In this document: in pieces, positions 7,825 through 23,809 of the stretch | Numbering within the stretch: position 1 is the first letter of the stretch | Layout of the letters: each line of letters begins with the position of its first letter | Assembly (NCBI GenBank): GCA_034439715.1 | Contig: JAWXAY010000070.1 | Location: forward strand, 15,581 to 79,580 | DNA: 64,000 bases | Source of the DNA: Pseudomonadota bacterium | Lineage (GTDB): Bacteria > Bdellovibrionota > Bdellovibrionia > Bdellovibrionales > SG-bin7 | Reading direction: 5' to 3' | Program-made: the position numbers and the translations under genes | The notes under the pieces: generated by a model | The model's input: the letters and a program-made list of their open reading frames with translations, nothing else | Told to the model about the DNA's origin: nothing | Databases searched by the model: none

Positions 7825-9849
7825 ATGTTTAAGAGTTTTAAGGGCAGACTAATCGGCTTAATTGTTTTTATTATGTTTACGACGGGCGTGGTAAACTTTA
7901 TGCAATTTAAGCATGCCCTTAACGGGCAAAGCGAAGATATATTAAAGAGTTTCAATATTCACTCAGAGGCCATTGCCAACGCTATTGCAGCGCAGTTTTA
8001 TGAGCGATATGGCGACGTACAAGCATTTGCGCGTAATGACGGATTACTAAACCTCGATTCTAGTAATATAGAGGGTATTTTTAACGAATACGCAAAACTT
8101 TACGGAATATATGACGTCATTTTACTCGTAGACCTACAAGGAAAGTACATCGCCAGCAATACAATATTACCTGATGCGAGCCCGTTAGACTCAGGCCCCC
8201 TTAAAACCATGAATTTTTCTAATGAACCCTGGTTTAGGTCCGTTCTTAATGGCCAATTTACCGAAGAGCCAGCTAAGGCGCTAACTGGTACCTACGTTGA
8301 AGATGCGCATGTCGACCCCATTACAACAGCAGTACTAAAAAAAGAACAGTTCGGGAACAGCTTCACGGCGATTTTTAAAGATAAACAAGGTAAACCACTC
8401 GGTATAATTACCAACCGCGCTAACTTTAAGTGGGTTGAACTTGAAGCTCAGATTTCCTACCGTGCCTTAAAGGCTCGCGGTCTAGCAACGGCGGAGGTTA
8501 CCGTAATTAGTAAAGACGGTTCAGTAATAGTCGATTACGATCCCACAGTTAGAAATGGTAACGTCGACGTTCAACACGACTTTGCTGTTCTCAACAAATT
8601 AAACCTGGCGGAGAAAGGTCTTGATGCTGCTAAACAACTAGTTGCCGGAAAATCGGGTTCTCAACTTGCCAAACATATTCGTAAAGGAGTTAACCAAATT
8701 GTTGGTTTTAGCAAAATAGAATCACCGAAAATGTTAAGCTCCATGGGTTGGGGCACGATGGTGAGAGTCGATGCCGATGAGGTTTTTTCAGTTATTAATA
8801 ATTCTCAAAGGCTATTTTATCTAATCTCAGCTGTAATGTTCGTATTATTTGGACTTTTAGTGTGGTTACTTTCAAGCAAGATCGCAGCACAAATCGGCGG
8901 CATAACCCATAAGATTTCGGAAGCTGGTTTAAAAGTTTCTTCTGCCGGTTCTCAGTTGTCGATGGCGAGCCAACAAGTTTCCTCGGGATCTTCAGAGGCC
9001 GCTGCAAGTCTTGAAGAAACAGTATCTTCTATTGAAGAACTTTCAAGTATGGTGAAGCTCAATGCCGACAATGCAAAACAAGCCAAGGCACTCTCTCAGA
9101 CAAGCACTAAATCAGCTGAAGAGGGCGAAACTGAAATTCGTGGATTAATTACTTCTATGAAAGAGATTGCAAAAAGCTCAAAGAAAATCGAAGAGATTAT
9201 CAACGTGATTGATGATATCGCCTTTCAAACAAATCTTCTTGCCCTTAACGCAGCTGTAGAAGCGGCGCGGGCCGGAGAGCAAGGCAAAGGTTTTGCGGTA
9301 GTTGCAGAAGCCGTGAGAAACCTCGCCCAAAGAAGTGCATCCGCTGCCAAAGACATTACGTCATTAATTAAGGATAGTGTTTCGCAAATTGATCAGGGCA
9401 CAAAGGTGGCAGACGCCAGCGGCAATGTTTTGAAAAATATTGTTACCTCAGTTAAGAAAGTTTCTGATCTTAATAACGAAATTGCATCTGCAAGCGCTGA
9501 ACAGGCCAACGGAATTAGTCAAATTACTAAGGCGATGAATGAACTTGATCGCTCCACTCAGCAGAACGCATCGGCGTCGGAGGAAGTGGCAGGAGCGGCC
9601 ACGCAAATGTCGAGTCAGGCCGACACTTTGAAAACGCTAGTGAGTGATTTAACAATAGTTATTGAGGGTGTCGCATCCAGGACGGTAATTAAGGAAGAAC
9701 CGAAGGCTTCGCCACCGCGACAGGGTTCAATCACGCCCATAAGCGCTTCACGCAAGCATTCATCAAAACCAAAAAATGAAGAGGTTGAAAAAATGATTCC
9801 CTTTAATGACGAGACAGCCGGAAAACTTGGCACAACAGACGGGTTTTAA
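7825..9849 (+). CDS. Methyl-accepting chemotaxis protein with periplasmic Cache-like domain
   Basis: Two TM helices; hairpin tip IAFQTNLLALNAAVEAARAGEQGKGFAVVAEAVR. Confidence 0.97.
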   Translation: MFKSFKGRLIGLIVFIMFTTGVVNFMQFKHALNGQSEDILKSFNIHSEAIANAIAAQFYERYGDVQAFARNDGLLNLDSSNIEGIFNEYAKLYGIYDVILLVDLQGKYIASNTILPDASPLDSGPLKTMNFSNEPWFRSVLNGQFTEEPAKALTGTYVEDAHVDPITTAVLKKEQFGNSFTAIFKDKQGKPLGIITNRANFKWVELEAQISYRALKARGLATAEVTVISKDGSVIVDYDPTVRNGNVDVQHDFAVLNKLNLAEKGLDAAKQLVAGKSGSQLAKHIRKGVNQIVGFSKIESPKMLSSMGWGTMVRVDADEVFSVINNSQRLFYLISAVMFVLFGLLVWLLSSKIAAQIGGITHKISEAGLKVSSAGSQLSMASQQVSSGSSEAAASLEETVSSIEELSSMVKLNADNAKQAKALSQTSTKSAEEGETEIRGLITSMKEIAKSSKKIEEIINVIDDIAFQTNLLALNAAVEAARAGEQGKGFAVVAEAVRNLAQRSASAAKDITSLIKDSVSQIDQGTKVADASGNVLKNIVTSVKKVSDLNNEIASASAEQANGISQITKAMNELDRSTQQNASASEEVAGAATQMSSQADTLKTLVSDLTIVIEGVASRTVIKEEPKASPPRQGSITPISASRKHSSKPKNEEVEKMIPFNDETAGKLGTTDGF

Positions 9850-9850
9850 T

Positions 9851-10324
9851 ATGAAAATAACAAAGTATTTAACCTTTATTTTAAAAGGACAGCCTTACGG
9901 AGTTCCGATCGGTGCCGTGCGCGAGATTAATCGCGTGACGGAAATCACTCCAGTGCCTCAAACTCCTGCCTTCGTGGCAGGTGTAATAAATCTGCGAGGG
10001 AAAGTGATACCAGTCGTTGATTTGCGGATGAAATTAGGCATGCCCAACACGCAGCAGACTAAACAAACTTGCATTATAGTTATCGAAGGCCAGTCTGAGC
10101 AGGTTGGAATGATCGTGGACTCAGTGAGTGGTGTGGTGGATTTGAGCGAAGATCAAATTGAACCTCGTCCTACAATGGGTAATGAAGACAAACTTAATTA
10201 TGTACTCGGTATGGGCAAGATCGATAACAATGTGGTTATTCTAATTGATATCGTAAAAGCTCTAAATAAGGAAGAGCTGACTAAGATTTATTCAACGATT
10301 GAATCCAGTCAGATAGCAGCGTGA
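9851..10324 (+). CDS. cheW: Chemotaxis coupling protein CheW
   Basis: YLTF...YGVPIGAVREI, GVINLRGKVIPVVDLR, GMIVDSV; start moved to ATG 9851 just after the MCP stop. Confidence 0.95.
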   Translation: MKITKYLTFILKGQPYGVPIGAVREINRVTEITPVPQTPAFVAGVINLRGKVIPVVDLRMKLGMPNTQQTKQTCIIVIEGQSEQVGMIVDSVSGVVDLSEDQIEPRPTMGNEDKLNYVLGMGKIDNNVVILIDIVKALNKEELTKIYSTIESSQIAA

Positions 10325-10330
10325 GCAGGT

Positions 10331-11554
10331 ATGGAAACCAAACCGGCCATACAGCCAAATAACATCAGAATTGATTCTGACCGAGTCGAAAATATTCTCG
10401 ATCTGGTCGGCGAACTAGTGGTCATTAAGAGCCAAGTATTGAATCAATGTGCCAATTACGCGACCGATACTCGATTGAACTCCATCGCAGCGCAATTAGA
10501 TAAAACCATTCGTGAGCTACAAGATAAAACATTGAGTATGCGGCTAACTCCGCTAAAGAATCTGTTTTTAAAAACGCAACGAGTGGTACGGGACCTATCA
10601 GTAAAGCTTGATAAGCCCGTCGAGTTTCATATGCTGGGAGAGGACACCGAGATTGATCGCAGAATGGTCGATCTATTAGGTGACCCACTTCTTCATATTG
10701 TGCGTAACTGCCTAGATCACGGTGTTGAAGAAACTGTTGCGCGCAAGAAAAAGGGTAAGAATGCGTCTGGCCACATACACCTACATGCTAAACAACTTGG
10801 CGATAGAATACAAATTTCAATTACTGATGATGGTGCAGGTATAGACCGTAATGTCGTTATCCAAAAAGGCCAAGAAAAAGGCTTAATTTCGGCTACACAA
10901 GATGTCGAAAAACTCACGGACCAACAAGTTTATAGTTTGCTTTTCGAAGTTGGTTTTTCAACTGCCAGTGCCGTGACCGACGTTTCGGGCCGAGGAGTTG
11001 GGATGGATGTCGTAAAATCCAATGTAGAAAAAATGAAAGGCGATATTGAAATCGATTCGAAGCCGGGTGTGGGTACCAAAATCATACTTACTCTGCCACT
11101 AACAACATCGATTACCGATGGTATGATTACGCAGGCGGGAAATCACTTATATATAATTCCTATGGAGTGTATTCTTGAACTCATTCATGTTACCGACGCC
11201 GACTTTTTAACACTTGAAAATGGCACCAAAGCTATTAACCATCGCGAACAAGTCTACCCAATATTGGATCTCGAAGATATTTTTTCTAAAGAAAATCCAT
11301 TTAATGTAGAAAATCTCGCAAAGAGCGAACAAAAAATGTATGTCCTGGTGGAGTCAGGAAAAAAGCGTTTATTGGTTGGAGTCAATTTTGTAATTGGTCA
11401 AACCCAAGTTGTACTTAAACTTCTTGGTGACAGCTTTAGACAAATTAAGGGAATTTCTGGCGCTTCAATATTGGGTGACGGTAAAATTGCACTAGTTATT
11501 AATCCTTTGGGATTAGAAAATCTTTTGGATGACCCGTCATTGAGGAACCAATGA
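10331..11554 (+). CDS. cheA: CheA-type kinase lacking HPt (P3-P4-P5 only)
   Basis: Begins at the dimerization motif IRID..VENILDLVGELV; intact HIVRNCLDHG, DDGAG, GFST, SGRGVGMDVV; C-terminal CheW-like domain. Confidence 0.9.
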   Translation: METKPAIQPNNIRIDSDRVENILDLVGELVVIKSQVLNQCANYATDTRLNSIAAQLDKTIRELQDKTLSMRLTPLKNLFLKTQRVVRDLSVKLDKPVEFHMLGEDTEIDRRMVDLLGDPLLHIVRNCLDHGVEETVARKKKGKNASGHIHLHAKQLGDRIQISITDDGAGIDRNVVIQKGQEKGLISATQDVEKLTDQQVYSLLFEVGFSTASAVTDVSGRGVGMDVVKSNVEKMKGDIEIDSKPGVGTKIILTLPLTTSITDGMITQAGNHLYIIPMECILELIHVTDADFLTLENGTKAINHREQVYPILDLEDIFSKENPFNVENLAKSEQKMYVLVESGKKRLLVGVNFVIGQTQVVLKLLGDSFRQIKGISGASILGDGKIALVINPLGLENLLDDPSLRNQ

Positions 11555-12453
11555 AATATGACAACTCCGGTGCGGCTAAAAATCTCGTTGCTGAAGGGCA
11601 AGATGAGATCAAAGAACTGGTGGCGGAAACTGAGGGTTTCGAGAAACTAGCCGCTCTTCTAAAAGAATACACAGGTATAAACCTACCCACAAACTCAAAA
11701 AACATCTCGTTAATGGCGAACCGCATGCGAAAGGTTCTTAAAAGCTCCCAAGTCGTTAGCTATAAGGAATTTTTGCGTATTCTGGAGAGTGGAGACTCTC
11801 GTGGCCGTCATGATTTCGTGACAGCTCTAACAACTAATACCACTCACTTTTTTCGTGAAAATTCCCACTTCGAATTTTTACAACAAAATCTTCCAGCAAT
11901 GATTTCTCGCAAAAGAAAATTGGCTTCTCCCGAGTTGCGCATTTGGTGTGCAGCTGCAAGCACTGGCCCAGAGGTTTACTCAATTATGATTACCCTCCTG
12001 GAAGCGCTGGGTTCAACCTTTCTCAGTTATCCAATAAAGTTTTTAGCCACCGACATTGACGTCAAAGTATTAAAGAAGGCGGCTGCTGGAATTTACAATA
12101 AAAAAGAAATGGAAGGTGTGCCGTCTTTTTTTATGCAGAAATACTTCGAAAAGATTCCGAACGCAACCGAGGTTACTTACCGCGTACTTCCAATTTTGCA
12201 AAGCGGAATTCGCTTTGCCCCATTTAATCTTATGACAGAGAAATATCCATTTAAAAATCATTTTGACATCATATTTTGTCGCAATGTTTTGATTTACTTT
12301 GATTCTAAAACGTCGTTAGAAGTTGTCGGTCGGTTGGTCGATCGCTTGGAAGTAGGTGGTCTTCTATTTCTAGGACACGCGGAATTTGGTACTATGAAGG
12401 CTCCAAAGTTAAACATATTAGGGCACTCCATATTTGAAAAGAGACAAGCATGA
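11551..12453 (+). CDS. cheR: Chemotaxis methyltransferase CheR
   Basis: TTNTTHFFRE, IWCAAASTG, ATDID, FDIIFCRNVLIYF, LFLGHAE. Confidence 0.96.
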   Translation: MKYDNSGAAKNLVAEGQDEIKELVAETEGFEKLAALLKEYTGINLPTNSKNISLMANRMRKVLKSSQVVSYKEFLRILESGDSRGRHDFVTALTTNTTHFFRENSHFEFLQQNLPAMISRKRKLASPELRIWCAAASTGPEVYSIMITLLEALGSTFLSYPIKFLATDIDVKVLKKAAAGIYNKKEMEGVPSFFMQKYFEKIPNATEVTYRVLPILQSGIRFAPFNLMTEKYPFKNHFDIIFCRNVLIYFDSKTSLEVVGRLVDRLEVGGLLFLGHAEFGTMKAPKLNILGHSIFEKRQA

Positions 12454-14531
12454 GCAACGAAAAACTTGATCTCCATGAACAAGTTATGGTTGTTGCCACT
12501 GACGAGGGCACTCGCAAAATCGTCATGGCTGCGCTTGAAGACCTTACCCTTAATGGCAAAGGTTTTCCCTCTGCAGATCTTGCTCTAAAGGAAATGGGTG
12601 GTTTGAATCCTTTTCTTACAATAGTGGATTTTAAATTAATTGACATGGATCCCTTCGTCTTTGAACAAGAGATCAGAAAAGAATTTCCAGTCATGCCAAT
12701 TATGTTTCTTGTTGAATCCATTGATAAAGAATCTGCTGTTTCGGGTTTAGCTCGCAATTGCCAGATTATCGAAAAACCGGTAAAGAAGGAAACTCTCAAA
12801 AATTTTATTTTAAAAAGCGCCAAACAGAGAATTTCTGATATTGAAAATGACAACAAAGAGATAGAAGAAATCACTCAACTTTTTGTCGAAGAGTCATATG
12901 ACTTAATGAAAGACGCCCATCAGTTGATTTTGCGTCTAGAAGAAGAGCCCATCGATCCTACTGTAATCAATTCTCTTTTTCGAAAAGTTCACTCTATCAA
13001 GGGTGGCGCCAGCGCACTACCCAACGCAAAAACTTTAAATGCCCTTATGCATGCGTTTGAAACAGTCCTGTCTTCGGTTAAAAAGGGTGAAATTGTCCCC
13101 AACGCAAAGTCAATTAATCTTTTTTTGGAATCTGCAGACCTTTGCTTACATATTCTTAATGTCATTAAGTCGAACGCACAGCCCGATGACAAGCTTTTAT
13201 CATCTGTAAAAGCAGCAGTAGTGGGATTAAAGAACCTTAAGGATAGCGGAAATGTAGTGTCCGAGAAAAAGGTCGTTCAGACTGAAGTACCCGGCACGGC
13301 ACAGAGTTTTCAGCAAGAAGAAGAAGGCATTTGGGTTACCAATGAAAAACTAGATTCCTTCATGGCGCTGTCGGGAGAGCTCATTGTTTTGAAAAACAAT
13401 TTTTACATGATGAGTCGAGATGTAGGAATTCGATCGAGTCCTGAAAAACTTGAAAAAAAACATTCAGAGTTTGCCTATAGCTTGAATAAAATTACAGATC
13501 ATTTGCAAGAACACATTATGTCAGTGCGCAAAGTTTCTCTAGAAAAAGCTTTTAGTAAATTGGGTCGCATTATTCGCCAGACCGGTCTCGAAGTAGGAAA
13601 GAAAATTAAACTACGCACTGAGGGCCTTGAATTAGGTGTCGATAAAAATATTGCTGCAAGCTTAAGTTCGAGTCTTGTGCACATGGTAAGAAATTCGATT
13701 GATCATGGAATTGAGACTCCACAAAAGCGAAAAGAGGCTGGCAAGCAAGAGGAAGGCACGATTCTTATCAAAGCCTTCGAGAGTCGAGGAGTCATTCATA
13801 TGATCGTGAGTGATGACGGCGGCGGCATTCCAAAAAATAAGTTACTTGATCGCGCACTTCAAAGCGAACTCATTACGCAAGCTAAAGTACCCAGCATGAC
13901 GGACGAGGAGATTCTAGATTTGATTTTTCTGCCGGGCTTTACGACTGCAGAAAAAGTCACAGACCTTTCGGGCCGTGGAGTTGGCATGGATGTGGTTAAG
14001 TCTTCAGTTCTGCAGCACTCAGGAAAAATAAGGGTAGAAACCGAACCCGGAATTGGCAGCAAATTTTACTTAGAGATTCCAGTGCCAAAAGCGGTGATGG
14101 TAGAATACACAGTCTTGAGCCGCTGGAAAGGCTCGATGTTCGCAGTACCCCTAACAGCAATCGCGCGAATTGTTTCGTGTAATCGTTTAACTCTTACTGA
14201 AATTGGGCATGTAAGGATGTGTCAGTATGACGGAAAGTCGATAGTACTAAGAAGCTTCGATGAACTTTTACATGGACGTGATATTGAAAACGCCGAGACC
14301 GTTAAATTTAAAACTGTCATCGTATTAAGACATAAAGAAAAGTTTGTGGGACTGTTGGTTGACTGTATTGAAGATCAATTTGAGGCCGTTGTTAGATCGT
14401 TTGATCACATTGTAAAAAAGATTCCAGGGTTTAAAGGTACTGCCATTTTGGGTAATGACGAGATTGCCTATGTTATTTCGCCGGAGGAAATGGTGGGACT
14501 CTTGCAAAAAGATGAAAGTGTAGCAGCTTAA
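12450..14531 (+). CDS. cheA: CheA with N-terminal atypical receiver domain (REC-HPt-P3-P4-P5)
   Basis: HPt LFRKVHSIKGGA; HMVRNSIDHG; DDGGG; SGRGVGMDVV; N-terminal REC-like segment IVDFKL...IEKP. Confidence 0.92.
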   Translation: MSNEKLDLHEQVMVVATDEGTRKIVMAALEDLTLNGKGFPSADLALKEMGGLNPFLTIVDFKLIDMDPFVFEQEIRKEFPVMPIMFLVESIDKESAVSGLARNCQIIEKPVKKETLKNFILKSAKQRISDIENDNKEIEEITQLFVEESYDLMKDAHQLILRLEEEPIDPTVINSLFRKVHSIKGGASALPNAKTLNALMHAFETVLSSVKKGEIVPNAKSINLFLESADLCLHILNVIKSNAQPDDKLLSSVKAAVVGLKNLKDSGNVVSEKKVVQTEVPGTAQSFQQEEEGIWVTNEKLDSFMALSGELIVLKNNFYMMSRDVGIRSSPEKLEKKHSEFAYSLNKITDHLQEHIMSVRKVSLEKAFSKLGRIIRQTGLEVGKKIKLRTEGLELGVDKNIAASLSSSLVHMVRNSIDHGIETPQKRKEAGKQEEGTILIKAFESRGVIHMIVSDDGGGIPKNKLLDRALQSELITQAKVPSMTDEEILDLIFLPGFTTAEKVTDLSGRGVGMDVVKSSVLQHSGKIRVETEPGIGSKFYLEIPVPKAVMVEYTVLSRWKGSMFAVPLTAIARIVSCNRLTLTEIGHVRMCQYDGKSIVLRSFDELLHGRDIENAETVKFKTVIVLRHKEKFVGLLVDCIEDQFEAVVRSFDHIVKKIPGFKGTAILGNDEIAYVISPEEMVGLLQKDESVAA

Positions 14532-14547: not shown

Positions 14548-15501
14548 GTGGAAAAGTCCGAACAGGATTTTTTAAAGGAGCTTCAAAAGCAGTGTGTATC
14601 GGACAGTACCGAATACACGGCTGCTGCCTATGAGGCGTTAATGGGTCTCACAAAAAATCCGCCTGAAACTTTATCTAAAATTATGAAGTGTTTTCATAGC
14701 GTAAAAGGCAACGTGCAAGCTGTTGGATTCAACTTCATGGGGGACTTCGTTCACGAAGTGGAGGAAACTCTGATATCGGTTAGCCAAAAGCTAGGTGACA
14801 TAGATGTCTTAGCTGGTGGCGAAAAAGACCTTTTGGATCTTGAATTTTGGTTGTCCAAAGTTATCCAAGCTACTGATGAATATTTTAAGGATCTGTCTGA
14901 AACATCAGTAGATTGCGAAGAATTTTTAGAGTGTAGACGAGGAACATTAGCTCTTTTGGCATCGTGGACTCCGAATACATCGCAGAGTACTGCAGGCAAT
15001 GAGGGCGAGGCTCCGGTTACTGAGATAGCCGTTCCGCAATGGGAGGCAACAGTTGCTCCTACGGAACCCGCTCCCCAGGCTAAGACAGGTAAAGGAGTCT
15101 ATCTTTTGTGCCGTAACCGTGACCGCGAATATGCCATACCAGTTCTGAATGTGGTTGAAGTCGTTAAATTCCGTAACTTAAGTTTAATTCCCTGCGAACG
15201 TGGTGATCTTATGGGCCTCATGAACCTGCGTGGCGAGGTTATGCCAATATTGGATTTAAGTCGCACGTTTGGCGGTCAAGAAAACCCTGAAAGATGTTTT
15301 ATCGTCATCTGTGAAGTCAAAGGCACGCGTTTTGGTTTTCCGATTGAAAACGCAGAGCATATCGAAGAACTAAATTTTGAATATTTTCAGAAAGGTCAAG
15401 ACCTTTCATCAAGTGATGAGCGCAGTTTAATTAACCACATATATGTCAAAGGCAATAAGACCGTCTTTGTTGTGGATGTCGAATGGATATTAGCTTCATG
15501 A
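14548..15501 (+). CDS. HPt-CheW fusion protein
   Basis: N-terminal MKCFHSVKGNVQAVGF...VHEVE HPt; P/A/T/E-rich linker; C-terminal YAIPVLNVVEV...GLMNLRGEVMPILDL CheW domain; GGAGG RBS before GTG. Confidence 0.88.
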   Translation: MEKSEQDFLKELQKQCVSDSTEYTAAAYEALMGLTKNPPETLSKIMKCFHSVKGNVQAVGFNFMGDFVHEVEETLISVSQKLGDIDVLAGGEKDLLDLEFWLSKVIQATDEYFKDLSETSVDCEEFLECRRGTLALLASWTPNTSQSTAGNEGEAPVTEIAVPQWEATVAPTEPAPQAKTGKGVYLLCRNRDREYAIPVLNVVEVVKFRNLSLIPCERGDLMGLMNLRGEVMPILDLSRTFGGQENPERCFIVICEVKGTRFGFPIENAEHIEELNFEYFQKGQDLSSSDERSLINHIYVKGNKTVFVVDVEWILAS

Positions 15502-17045
15502 AGAGTCTTTTTTTACTCCCAGGAAAATATGCGGCCTTTAATGAACCCTTAGAAATAAAAACGGTTCTTGGATCCTGTGTATCTGTAGTTTTAGTGGATC
15601 GAACAGCCAAATGTATGGGGATAAATCACTATTTACTTACGAGTTTACCTAAGAGTGAAGCTCCAACCGGTAGATACGGCGAATGCGCCATTCCTTTACT
15701 TCTTCAGGATATGGAAAAGTTAGGCGCTAAAATAGAGCAAATGCAGGCGCATGTGTTTGGCGGGGCAAACGTTTTAAAAGATGTGCAGATTGGCAAGGAA
15801 GTTGGCCAACTAAATATCGAGTATGCCTTTCAAACTCTAAGAACGCTTGGAATTCCCATTGTTGAAAAAAACGTGGGGGGAATAAAAAGCCGAAAGGTTG
15901 TGGTAAATAGTCATGATTTTTCGGTCAAAGAGGTTTTACTTAATGAGAGCGAGGCCCAAGAAATCGACATTACGGGATATAAAAAGCTCAAACAGATTAA
16001 AAAGGTAAAAGTGTTAATTGTTGATGATTCAGCCACAATACGAACTTTGTTTCAAAATATATTTAACAAAAACGGGCTAGAAGTCGTGGGTGTTGCGGCA
16101 GACGCTTATCAAGCTCGCGAGCTCATTGTTAGTAAAAAGCCTGACGTCATCACTTTAGATATAGAAATGCCAAAAATGAACGGCGTCGTGTTTTTAGAAA
16201 AACTCATGCAATCCATGCCTCTTCCCGTCGTTATGGTATCTTCGCTGGGCAATCAAGGAGAGGCAGCTTTAAAGGCATTAAGCCTTGGCGCAGTTGAGTT
16301 TATGCACAAACCCACACAATTTGATCCTCAGATTCTAAAACAATTGGGAGAAATGCTCGTCGAAAAAGTCAAAGCGGCTGCCAACGTAAAAGTTAGAAAA
16401 CTGGAATCGCAAAAAATAAACGAAAAGCATGCCGTGCACGTCAATGAAAAGAATGCTTTTATTGCGGGGTTAAATATTATCGCCGTCGGAGGAAACATAG
16501 GTTCCCAAAAAAGTTTAGAAACTCTACTTAGGAGCTTACCGGCAGATTCACCGCCTGTGGTTATTTCTAACTCAACAATCTCTGGTTTTTTAGATGCCTA
16601 TCTAAAAGAAATACAAAGAGGAATATCCGTGGAGTTGAGAGTCGCCAGTGACGGCGAGATATTAAAATCTGGCTGCGTATATTTTGCACCAGCAGAAATA
16701 CACCTCAAAGTTGTTGATCAGTCTTCTAATTTTATAGCGCGCTTAAGAGAAAGTATGCCTATTAACGGACAAAAACCTTCAATTGATGTTTTATTTTCAT
16801 CTATTGCGAAGTGCGCCAACGCAAAGGCTATAGGGATCCTAATGAGCGGCTTTGGACGTGACGGTGTCGACGGACTTAAGTCTCTTCACGCAGCCGGATC
16901 GCAAACAATGGTAGAAGAACCTTCGGCATGCGATTTTCCTTATGCCCCTCAACAGGCCATCAGTGTAGGAGTTGTGGACTACATAAGAGAAGCAAAAGAC
17001 TTTGTGACTACCGTCATGCAGGTCAGAAACAGGAGTGTGGCATGA
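15498..17045 (+). CDS. CheD-REC-CheB-like fusion with degenerate methylesterase domain
   Basis: CheD motifs LLPG, TVLGSCVSV, NHYLL, VFGGA; REC IVDDS/TLDIEMP/KP; esterase fold with GGNIGS and ISNS replacing ASTGG and VQH; ATGA overlap with the previous gene. Confidence 0.88.
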   Translation: MKSLFLLPGKYAAFNEPLEIKTVLGSCVSVVLVDRTAKCMGINHYLLTSLPKSEAPTGRYGECAIPLLLQDMEKLGAKIEQMQAHVFGGANVLKDVQIGKEVGQLNIEYAFQTLRTLGIPIVEKNVGGIKSRKVVVNSHDFSVKEVLLNESEAQEIDITGYKKLKQIKKVKVLIVDDSATIRTLFQNIFNKNGLEVVGVAADAYQARELIVSKKPDVITLDIEMPKMNGVVFLEKLMQSMPLPVVMVSSLGNQGEAALKALSLGAVEFMHKPTQFDPQILKQLGEMLVEKVKAAANVKVRKLESQKINEKHAVHVNEKNAFIAGLNIIAVGGNIGSQKSLETLLRSLPADSPPVVISNSTISGFLDAYLKEIQRGISVELRVASDGEILKSGCVYFAPAEIHLKVVDQSSNFIARLRESMPINGQKPSIDVLFSSIAKCANAKAIGILMSGFGRDGVDGLKSLHAAGSQTMVEEPSACDFPYAPQQAISVGVVDYIREAKDFVTTVMQVRNRSVA

Positions 17046-18109
17046 GCAGCAAAAAAATTCGTGTTTTGATCGTTGATGATTCATCTATTATAAGATCCTT
17101 ACTTAGGCGCTTTTTAACAAGTGATCCTGATATTGAAGTAGTGGGGGCTGCACCCGATCCTTATGTGGCTCGTGATATACTTCTGCGAGAAAAACCTGAC
17201 GTCATGACATTAGACGTGGAGATGCCACGAATGGACGGCGTTACATTTTTAGAGAAAGTCATGGCAAGTAATCCGGTACGCACAATTATCATCAGCAGCC
17301 TTTCTACTCAGGGTTCCGAGACAACCTTACGGGCATTTGAAGTCGGTGCAATTGACGTGATGGCTAAACCTGCAATAGATATAACACGCTCCATGGAAAG
17401 CATTCGCGAAGAAATCGTGAATCGTGTGAAAGCCGTCGCTAAAGCAAAATTGCCAATAAAAATGAAATACGAGGCTCGTCCTCCTACGGCAGTCAAATCG
17501 CAAGCTTTAGCTAAGACCACGCATCAAATCTTGGCGATCGCTTCTTCTACCGGTGGTACTGAAGCTCTAAAAGTCATATTGTCAAAAATGCCAAGCGATA
17601 TTCCAGGTACAGTTATTGTTCAACATTTACCACCGGTATTTACTGCGACCTATGCCAAACTTTTGCAAAAAATGTGTCCGTTTGAAGTCAAAGAGGCACA
17701 AGAAGGCGACAAGGTTTATCCAGGTAGAGTATTAATAGCTCCTGGCAATTATCATATGGAACTTTCACGCAGCGGAGCTTACTATCACGTGAAGCTGCAT
17801 CAGGAGCCAATATTAAACGGTGTTAGGCCTGCCGCTGATTTCCTCATGAAAAGCGTTGCAAAGTATGCCGGCGCGAATGCTATTGGTGTCGTATTAACTG
17901 GAATGGGAAGAGATGGTGCCGATGGCTTGGTTGCCATGAAAAACAGTGGTGCCTACAACATTGCTCAAAACGAAGAAACCTGCGTAGTGTTTGGAATGCC
18001 CAAGGTCGCAATTGAGCTCAAAGCCATTCAAAAAGTGTGCGCACTTGAAGATATTGCTAAAGAAATCATGAAACAAATAAAAATTATGGACGTCGTGAAA
18101 GCTAGCTAA
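17042..18109 (+). CDS. cheB: Chemotaxis response regulator methylesterase CheB
   Basis: REC plus intact ASSTGG, VQHLP, LTGMGRDG; start at ATG 17042 (ATGA overlap). Confidence 0.97.
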   Translation: MSSKKIRVLIVDDSSIIRSLLRRFLTSDPDIEVVGAAPDPYVARDILLREKPDVMTLDVEMPRMDGVTFLEKVMASNPVRTIIISSLSTQGSETTLRAFEVGAIDVMAKPAIDITRSMESIREEIVNRVKAVAKAKLPIKMKYEARPPTAVKSQALAKTTHQILAIASSTGGTEALKVILSKMPSDIPGTVIVQHLPPVFTATYAKLLQKMCPFEVKEAQEGDKVYPGRVLIAPGNYHMELSRSGAYYHVKLHQEPILNGVRPAADFLMKSVAKYAGANAIGVVLTGMGRDGADGLVAMKNSGAYNIAQNEETCVVFGMPKVAIELKAIQKVCALEDIAKEIMKQIKIMDVVKAS

Positions 18110-18116
18110 TAGGAGA

Positions 18117-18551
18117 GTGACCGTGCTTATTACATTTCCGCTAAAAGTTGCGATAGTCGATGATGATATAATTCAAACGAAACTCATTTCAGGATTTTTA
18201 AAAGAAGTGCCAGATCTTGCGCCCCATGTTTTTAACGACCCGGTAGAAGCCATGACCGCTATAGAAGCTGGTGGTTTTCGCCTCATCATAACCGACCTTA
18301 AGATGGAAGCACTCAGCGGCGATGATTTAGTCAGGCGTTGCTGCGAACTTCGGGGTGGAATGCAGATTCTGGTAGTAACGGGTACCGACCACCTAATGTC
18401 GGCAATTCGCTGTTTTAATGCTGGCGCACAACGAATAATCAGAAAGCCAATAGATAAAAAAGAATTGGTAGAGGCAGTGCAGTCATCTGTTGACCATTTT
18501 AAAGCCTTCAATGAAACCGTCAGAGCCATTAAATCGAAAAAAGCGAGTTAG
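18117..18551 (+). CDS. Single-domain response regulator (CheY-like)
   Basis: IVDDD, ITDLKM, VTG, RKP; last gene of the che operon. Confidence 0.88.
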   Translation: MTVLITFPLKVAIVDDDIIQTKLISGFLKEVPDLAPHVFNDPVEAMTAIEAGGFRLIITDLKMEALSGDDLVRRCCELRGGMQILVVTGTDHLMSAIRCFNAGAQRIIRKPIDKKELVEAVQSSVDHFKAFNETVRAIKSKKAS

Positions 18552-23278: not shown

Positions 23279-23809
23279 TTAAATACAAACACCAAATCCG
23301 GTGTTATTTATAAATGAACAGTTACAGCCAGAGAAGTTACCACTGCATCCCATAAATGCGCTGCTTGGTCCCCAACTATTATAGTTTCCATAGTAGCCAG
23401 CATAATTCCAGTAACTATTATAATAGGAGTAAACATAGGCGTTTGTGGCATAAGAGTTTACCCAAGTAGCTGCAACACAGCCAGATCCATTCGAATTATA
23501 AACTGCATAGTAACCGGCGTAACATTGAATTCCATATCTTGTAACAGGAGCACCATAAAAATTATTACCATAACCGCCAAATCCACCGTTGTTATAGCCG
23601 CAGTTTGTGCCATATGAATTTGTGCCATAGCCATTGGCAGGATTGTATGAAGTCTGCTGCCCGGTTTGAGGATTGTAATAAGAATTTTGGCAATTCCCAT
23701 TAATGTTATTGGGATGGACCGCAACTTGGCCACCGCTTCCGTTTTTATTTTTGCTGGGACAGCCTATTGATGTCATAGCAATAATTGTGATTAATATTAG
23801 CTTTCTCAT
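23279..23809 (-). CDS. Tyr/Gly/Asn-rich, Cys-containing lipoprotein of unknown function
   Basis: GGAGG RBS, signal peptide ending TSIG-C, low-complexity mature region. Confidence 0.7.
   Translation of the reverse strand: MRKLILITIIAMTSIGCPSKNKNGSGGQVAVHPNNINGNCQNSYYNPQTGQQTSYNPANGYGTNSYGTNCGYNNGGFGGYGNNFYGAPVTRYGIQCYAGYYAVYNSNGSGCVAATWVNSYATNAYVYSYYNSYWNYAGYYGNYNSWGPSSAFMGCSGNFSGCNCSFINNTGFGVCI

Follow-up and report, generated by a model that had tools for sequence, protein, structure and literature searches.

CheB and CheD are textbook adaptation enzymes. In Bacillus and Thermotoga, phosphorylated CheY (CheY-P) and CheC act on CheD in trans, and CheD of B. subtilis binds receptors. According to the respective figure legends, the catalytic triad of CheB is numbered Ser164/His190/Asp286 (PMC3180692), and that of T. 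maritima CheD consists of Cys27/His44/Thr21 (PMC7022378). Here we describe a gene, designated gene A, in which a CheD domain, a receiver (REC) domain and a CheB-like domain devoid of the catalytic serine and histidine (hereafter pseudo-CheB) are joined in one polypeptide. It lies in a che operon within a stretch of 64,000 nucleotides (the window, to which positions refer unless a locus is named) from a Pseudomonadota bacterium placed by GTDB in the Bdellovibrionota (assembly GCA_034439715.1, contig JAWXAY010000070.1, positions 15,581 to 79,580 of the forward strand). We propose, with a probability of roughly 55%, that gene A encodes a CheD that would act on receptors under the control of the fused receiver, the latter being phosphorylated in a CheA-dependent manner, with pseudo-CheB as a regulatory or docking partner rather than an enzyme.

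The interval 15498–18109 is occupied by two genes in different frames, which rules out a single 2.6-kb fusion gene across it. The two genes, and the domains of the first, are as follows.

15498–17045, plus strand: gene A, CheD-REC-pseudo-CheB fusion, 515 aa, an orthologue of the Bd2829-type proteins of B. bacteriovorus (open reading frame and Pfam)
15498–15947, plus strand: CheD deamidase domain of gene A (PF03975, 76.2 bits, cut-off 25), with catalytic Thr22, Cys27 (15576–15578) and His44 (15627–15629) intact
16011–16322, plus strand: REC domain of gene A (PF00072, Response_reg, 87.1 bits), with phospho-acceptor Asp221 (16158–16160)
16479–17000, plus strand: pseudo-methylesterase domain of gene A, pseudo-CheB (PF01339, CheB_methylest, 123.6 bits, against 209.4 in the neighbouring gene B)
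17042–18109, plus strand: gene B, canonical CheB with REC (Response_reg, 74.9 bits) and methylesterase (CheB_methylest, 209.4 bits) domains, 355 aa, Ser-His-Asp triad intact (Pfam and alignment)

Gene A is taken to start at the ATG used by its homologues; the longer frame begins at 15483. An ATGA at 15498–15501 holds both the start of gene A and the stop of the upstream gene, which encodes an HPt-CheW protein, and a second ATGA at 17042–17045 likewise holds the stop of gene A and the start of gene B.

Two of the three domains carry a complete set of functional residues. Thr22, Cys27 and His44 of the CheD domain align to Thr21, Cys27 and His44 of T. maritima CheD (alignment to 2f9z_C, E 8.3e-18), and in fold, family and catalytic triad this domain is predicted to be a CheD receptor deamidase, a CNF1/YfiH-like cysteine hydrolase. 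In the receiver, the acidic pair (D176, D177), the phospho-acceptor aspartate (D221), the Ser/Thr residue (S249) and the lysine (K271) are all present. The residues of pseudo-CheB were read from alignments to S. typhimurium CheB (1a2o, phmmer E 1.5e-63) and to gene B (33% identity). The nucleophile Ser164 is replaced by Asn333 (codon 16494–16496), the motif GASTGG of 1a2o and ASSTGG of gene B having become GGNIGS; His190 is replaced by Ser359 (16572–16574), with ITQHMPP and IVQHLPP turned into ISNSTIS; and Asp286 is retained as Asp455 (16860–16862), GMGNDG and GMGRDG corresponding to GFGRDG. The domain belongs to CheB in fold and family and lacks the triad; it is a homologue of CheB that is predicted not to be an esterase.

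The replacement of both residues is not a peculiarity of the window. A word-indexed protein search with gene A gave 5908 proteins at E ≤ 0.001; among the matches listed, 120 of 120 contain the same three Pfam domains at 45–100% identity, and their labels, where named, read Bdellovibrio, Pseudobdellovibrionaceae, Bdellovibrionota or Oligoflexia. In a family alignment of 44 rows, made up of the window protein and 43 of the 120 listed homologues, the serine position is Asn in 44/44, the histidine position is His in 0/44 and the aspartate is kept in 44/44, while the CheD Thr/Cys/His and the five receiver residues are invariant in all rows. A genome scan with one genome per species found 79 loci: 65 are of the Asn type, with His in none of the 63 that have this column, 13 are Ser-His-Asp and one breaks off ahead of the domain. 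No Bdellovibrionota-type homologue examined departs from the loss of Ser and His, a pattern of residues that is far beyond chance.

Selection has evidently acted on the whole protein. The reading frame is intact and of constant length in 61 genome loci labelled Bdellovibrio, Oligoflexus or Silvanigrella, and the median dN/dS (the ratio of nonsynonymous to synonymous substitution rates) is 0.033 for CheD, 0.009 for REC and 0.031 for pseudo-CheB, calculated from the 5 unsaturated pairs among 62 full-length genes. The mean identity over all pairs of these 62 genes is 0.53, 0.73 and 0.50, respectively, REC being the most conserved domain of the fusion by both measures. These values argue for strong purifying selection on all three domains. 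The original prediction had described a CheD-REC-CheB protein with Ser and His lost, Asp kept and the CheD and receiver residues intact, which proved right in every detail once the interval was read as two genes, and its expectation that the loss would be consistent among homologues and under purifying selection is borne out by the counts and the dN/dS of pseudo-CheB given above.

A comparison of 29 dead-type with 119 live CheB domains shows how far the former have been remodelled. Thirty positions are conserved in live domains only (including T165, G167, Q189, H190, P192, G313 and M314), 8 in dead domains only, 3 are conserved in both groups yet different (S164N, M283F and V311F), and 9 are conserved and identical in the two. 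The 8 + 3 = 11 newly constrained positions would mark new constraints in pseudo-CheB, which we regard, on this comparison, as an old, remodelled pseudo-enzyme under constraints of its own. That it is merely a decaying, functionless, pseudogenised remnant is hardly credible: its Pfam scores of about 110–125 bits, against 160–228 in live CheB, and the 30 relaxed positions are compatible with decay, which is nevertheless contradicted by the intact frame of constant length in 61 loci, the dN/dS of 0.031, the 11 newly constrained positions and the confident predicted fold. One may also ask whether pseudo-CheB has retained enzymatic activity, by a mechanism other than the canonical one or on a different substrate, through Asn333, Asp455 and the newly fixed residues. 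There is neither a nucleophile at the serine position nor a general base at the histidine position (0/63 loci), and an Asn nucleophile in the CheB fold would, to our knowledge, be without precedent; hence we consider this very improbable, even though Asn333, Asp455, Gly332, Phe452 and Pro475 vary hardly or not at all and indicate constraint on the former active-site region.

An AlphaFold2 model computed from the 44-row alignment has a mean pLDDT (predicted local distance difference test) of 88.1 and a pTM (predicted template modelling score) of 0.86. In Foldseek comparisons, the REC-pseudo-CheB unit matches full-length CheB (6ymz and 1a2o) with a target-normalised TM (template modelling) score of 0.77–0.80, pseudo-CheB matches the CheB catalytic domains 1chd and 3sft with root-mean-square deviations (RMSD) of 1.8 Å and 1.5 Å, and the CheD domain matches 2f9z_C with an RMSD of 1.8 Å. 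The CheB fold is thus predicted to be kept in pseudo-CheB despite the dead triad. A predicted complex of CheD (residues 1–152) against REC-pseudo-CheB (168–515) gave a score of 0.00 (mark 0.32), which counts neither for nor against. The linker between CheD and REC (15960–15980, residues 155–161) carries a V-D-V-S-G-F-type motif kept in 43/44 family members, in a region of low AlphaFold2 confidence (pLDDT about 59). A pseudo-substrate in this linker, S-E-A-Q-E in the window protein, was considered and dropped, as the family does not conserve it.

The fusion sits in an operon on the plus strand with the order MCP (methyl-accepting chemotaxis protein), CheW, CheA-like protein without HPt, CheR, REC-HPt-CheA, HPt-CheW, gene A, gene B and CheY-like protein. 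The genes other than A and B are listed below.

7825–9849, plus strand: MCP (Pfam)
9806–10324, plus strand: CheW (Pfam)
10331–11554, plus strand: CheA-like protein with P3-P4-P5 and without HPt, 407 aa (Pfam)
11551–12453, plus strand: CheR (Pfam)
12450–14531, plus strand: CheA kinase, REC-HPt-dimerisation-HATPase-CheW, 693 aa (Pfam)
14548–15501, plus strand: HPt-CheW protein, 317 aa (Pfam CheW, 83.7 bits; intact H-S-V-K-G motif)
18117–18551, plus strand: CheY-like single-domain receiver, the final gene of the operon (Pfam PF00072, 68 bits)

The CheA at 12450–14531 is likely the phosphodonor system for the receiver of the fusion. The Hpt match of the HPt-CheW protein scores 23.5 bits, slightly below the Pfam cut-off of 24.6. 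Three CheA-related proteins are encoded in the operon, namely that at 10331–11554, which has dimerisation, ATPase and CheW parts and no HPt, and those at 12450–14531 and 14548–15501; this three-part arrangement is reminiscent of the split CheA3/CheA4 kinases of Rhodobacter sphaeroides. The cytoplasmic helices of the operon MCP contain Gln-Gln and Glu-Gln pairs, as seen by eye. Further downstream, an open reading frame of 176 aa on the minus strand (23279–23809) has no Pfam match at E ≤ 0.001.

Across related loci, the conserved neighbour of the fusion is the upstream gene with a CheW domain, not an adjacent CheB. A CheW domain is found in 58 of the 60 open reading frames directly upstream, a Pfam-detectable HPt in 7 of these 60, and the HPt of the window protein and its near relatives retains the histidine of H-[ST]-x-K-G. 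In Bdellovibrio proper (L020 8237–9004 and related loci), the CheW-like protein is extended at its N-terminus by a helical stretch of about 125 aa, which aligns with the window HPt and is without the phospho-histidine. Most related loci also have a CheA-like gene upstream of the fusion, and the module of B. bacteriovorus strain kdesi consists of cheA, the cheW-like gene and the fusion. A CheB-like open reading frame occurs in the fetched flanks of only 20 of the 61 full-length loci, and the sole other CheB domain of strain kdesi is 2.6 Mb away from the fusion. The position beside an intact CheB, as originally noted, therefore holds for the window and not as a conserved trait. At least one live CheB is nevertheless encoded in every dead-fusion genome checked (G000, G001, G004, G005, G077 and G104). 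The window genome, which is 95.7% complete, contains one CheD, namely the fusion, together with only three MCP genes and nine CheB_methylest matches, of which some fall in very long frames of as much as 1413 aa.

A natural de-fusion was found in g10, the genus that contains Bdellovibrio. CheD is present in 18/18 sampled genomes of this genus and occurs as a short frame in three of them (G157, G228 and G165). In the complete genomes G157 and G228, the syntenic site, flanked by genes for a di-haem oxidoreductase and an aldehyde dehydrogenase, holds only a CheD of 155 aa; in further members of the genus this site is taken up by cheA, the cheW-like gene and the fusion.

L096 4018–4485 (G157): stand-alone CheD, 155 aa (synteny)
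L097 3653–4120 (G228): stand-alone CheD, 155 aa (synteny)

These two proteins share 67% identity with the CheD domain of the fusion and have an intact Thr/Cys/His triad. The cheA gene, the cheW-like gene and REC-pseudo-CheB are all gone from the site; the dead CheB domain was found nowhere in the genomes of G157, G228 and G165, whose CheBs are all live. Because CheD alone survives there, it is an autonomous working unit, and REC-pseudo-CheB was lost along with the kinase genes. This co-loss is the strongest indication here that REC-pseudo-CheB is an input module tied to CheA. The tight linkage to the cheW-like and cheA genes, together with a conservation of the receiver that far exceeds that of the other domains (identity 0.73, dN/dS 0.009), could also be accounted for if the receiver itself were the functional core, draining off phosphate as a sink or competing with CheB/CheY for phosphorylated CheA at the array, with CheD and pseudo-CheB mainly positioning it. 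It is hard to see, however, why the CheD Thr/Cys/His should then be invariant in 44/44 with a dN/dS of 0.033, and why CheD should be the part that remains after loss of the module; we regard such a receiver-centred role as unlikely.

The fusion architecture as such is not unique to the dead clade. Cluster representatives numbering 1.84 billion were searched exhaustively, and the best 150 were aligned with the window proteins (152 rows). Dead-type rows number 29 of the 152, and 31 of the best 150 representatives are CheD-REC-CheB proteins of 492–553 aa with the CheD Thr/Cys/His plus a live Ser-His-Asp. All seven live fusions tested by Pfam, including that of locus L076, show the three domains, with esterase scores of about 198–212 bits. 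Further variants were also seen: P0177 (379 aa, contig of 64.7 kb) combines CheD with pseudo-CheB and lacks a receiver, P0143 (299 aa, contig of 45.5 kb) combines CheD with REC and lacks pseudo-CheB, and P0165 (511 aa) shows all three Pfam domains, its CheD His, its receiver residues and every member of its CheB triad being altered. The short dead-type proteins P0139, P0144 and P0152 were rejected as variants, since they are fragments whose clusters contain full-length members (519, 522 and 494 aa), and the locus L088 of a Nitrospira metagenome-assembled genome (MAG) was rejected as a fusion, since Pfam gives REC and CheB only and the long frame is an upstream read-through. In Caulobacterales, Chthonomonadales and genomes with other MAG labels (L075, L078-L083, L085 and L089), cheD and a live cheB stand side by side as two genes.

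In a REC-CheB tree of 69 rows, built with a quick tree search, the dead clade (support 100, starred), the live fusions (95, starred) and the stand-alone CheBs of Bdellovibrionota (99, starred) are each monophyletic, and the dead clade, on a long stem, is nested in neither of the other two. The approximately unbiased (AU) test does not reject a tree that holds dead and live fusions together (p-AU 0.579, with a slightly better likelihood), nor one that joins the dead fusions to the Bdellovibrionota CheBs (p-AU 0.377, at a cost of 4.36 log units). In a CheD tree of 72 rows, the CheDs of the dead clade join stand-alone CheDs and not those of live fusions, with an unstarred support of 90 and with the stand-alone rows picked by their likeness to the query; the fusion may thus have arisen once or more than once. 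An origin of the dead domain from a duplicated Bdellovibrionota CheB is possible on these trees. The duplication that the original prediction inferred goes too far in this respect, as the dead clade stands outside the Bdellovibrionota CheB clade and neither origin is rejected.

This bears on an explanation in which pseudo-CheB would be a duplicated CheB that lost catalysis and kept receptor binding, tethering CheD to the methylation helices when REC is phosphorylated and thereby replacing control by CheC. The kept fold and Asp286 and the purifying selection on the domain agree with it, the receiver-less P0177 fits a direct partnership of CheD and pseudo-CheB, and no true CheC (two-repeat PF04509) was found in the window genome at its completeness of 95.7%. 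Its two PF04509 matches are both CheX, of 170 and 160 aa (PF13690, 74.9 and 73.1 bits). They lie outside the window, at L001 1396–1908 on the minus strand (with L001 1920–2324, also minus) and at L002 1225–1707 on the plus strand, and one of the two adjoins a CheY-like receiver and an HD-domain protein. On the other side, 30 positions conserved in CheB are relaxed, many of them flanking the triad in sequence; the duplication is neither shown nor rejected (p-AU 0.377), and a common origin with the live fusions gives a slightly better fit. Stand-alone CheD is, moreover, the common form, and its orthologue survives the loss of REC-pseudo-CheB, which means that CheD needs no tether. A CheD match is present in 78 of 301 genomes of the phylum, 35 of the 78 in frames of at least 500 aa by table count. 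The CheC search also gave no match in four other CheD-encoding genomes that hold related loci, and in B. bacteriovorus strain kdesi it gave a single match of CheX size. We therefore hold the tether to be a doubtful explanation. The absence of CheC that had been noted from the sequence agrees with the search of the window genome, in which none was found, while a replacement of CheC by the fusion stays an analogy in view of the four other genomes. Likewise, regulation is better supported than the targeting module first suggested, because the surroundings of the old active site are heavily remodelled and an orthologous CheD survives without REC-pseudo-CheB.

Under our reading of gene A as a receiver-controlled CheD, the fused receiver would be phosphorylated by the co-encoded CheA/HPt system, and phosphorylation would alter the REC-pseudo-CheB unit as it does in CheB. 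This would switch the access of CheD to receptors, by activation or by sequestration, in either direction. Pseudo-CheB would serve as the structural partner through which the state of the receiver brings about a change at either CheD or the receptor, and the controlled action of CheD would be deamidation, possibly also receptor binding. Demethylation would be left to the separate canonical CheB. In this way, the fusion would supply in cis what CheY-P and CheC supply to CheD in trans. A more specific version, which we put forward only tentatively, is that pseudo-CheB may be a non-catalytic reader of the modification state of the receptor which, together with the receiver, gates CheD on or off the receptor; one polypeptide would then replace the CheC/CheD/CheY-P loop and run parallel to the CheR/CheB loop in predatory Bdellovibrionota.

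Several observations weigh against the receiver-controlled CheD. The receiver-less P0177 does not fit a purely receiver-driven scheme. The orthologous CheD persists alone where REC-pseudo-CheB has been lost, and the module is therefore dispensable for CheD in some lineages. The relaxation of the triad-flanking positions (T165, G167, Q189, P192, G313 and M314) suggests that the old substrate pocket may no longer bind receptors, and the dN/dS values come from 5 pairs only.

Homologues of the fusion are annotated publicly as "chemotaxis protein CheB" or "CheD", of which the former label appears wrong as an enzyme assignment in the light of the missing triad. In a proteome study (PMC12546842), the sole mention of it in the literature searched, the B. 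bacteriovorus orthologue Bd2829 is detected, increases late in predation and is named "probable chemoreceptor glutamine deaminase CheD". No description of a CheD-CheB fusion or of a catalytically dead CheB was found in the literature searched, which omits most subscription journals; a clade-wide, selected pseudo-CheB thus appears undescribed there, while the fusion architecture itself occurs elsewhere with a live triad. If the receiver does gate CheD, B. bacteriovorus would offer a genetically tractable case of a dead enzyme domain reused as a regulator, and the fusion would show both how CheD is controlled in many bacteria without CheC and how labour is split between the two adaptation branches. 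Nature has already made variants for comparison: live fusions, a stand-alone orthologous CheD, a receiver-less CheD-pseudo-CheB and a form whose three domains are all degenerate.

Compared with CheB, the protein-glutamate methylesterase (EC 3.1.1.61) and glutamine deamidase (S. typhimurium 1A2O and P. atrosepticum 6YMZ), the fusion has the same layout and fold of REC plus catalytic domain and keeps the receiver residues and Asp286; it differs in Ser164 to Asn, His190 to Ser, Met283 to Phe, an altered VFGMP region and the added N-terminal CheD. The live-triad fusions (metagenomic proteins such as P0147, P0148, P0154 and P0161, and that of locus L076, from a MAG labelled Proteobacteria bacterium PMG_129) match it in domain order, length and the CheD Thr/Cys/His. 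In contrast to the dead fusion, however, they keep Ser-His-Asp, score about 200–212 bits for CheB_methylest and form a clade of their own (95, starred), and a split with support 90 sets their CheDs apart from the dead-clade CheDs. The separate cheD-cheB pairs have the gene order of the fusion, cheD and then cheB, and differ from it in being two proteins and in their live CheB triad; such an adjacent pair is a plausible precursor state of the fusion. With the CheC/CheD/CheY-P system of B. subtilis and T. maritima (2F9Z), the fusion shares a homologous CheD with an identical catalytic triad. In that system CheD is coupled to a phosphorylated receiver, and a coupling of the same kind may be presumed for the fusion, with the differences that the receiver stands in cis, that the partner is a pseudo-CheB instead of the CheC phosphatase, and that its genome yielded no CheC.

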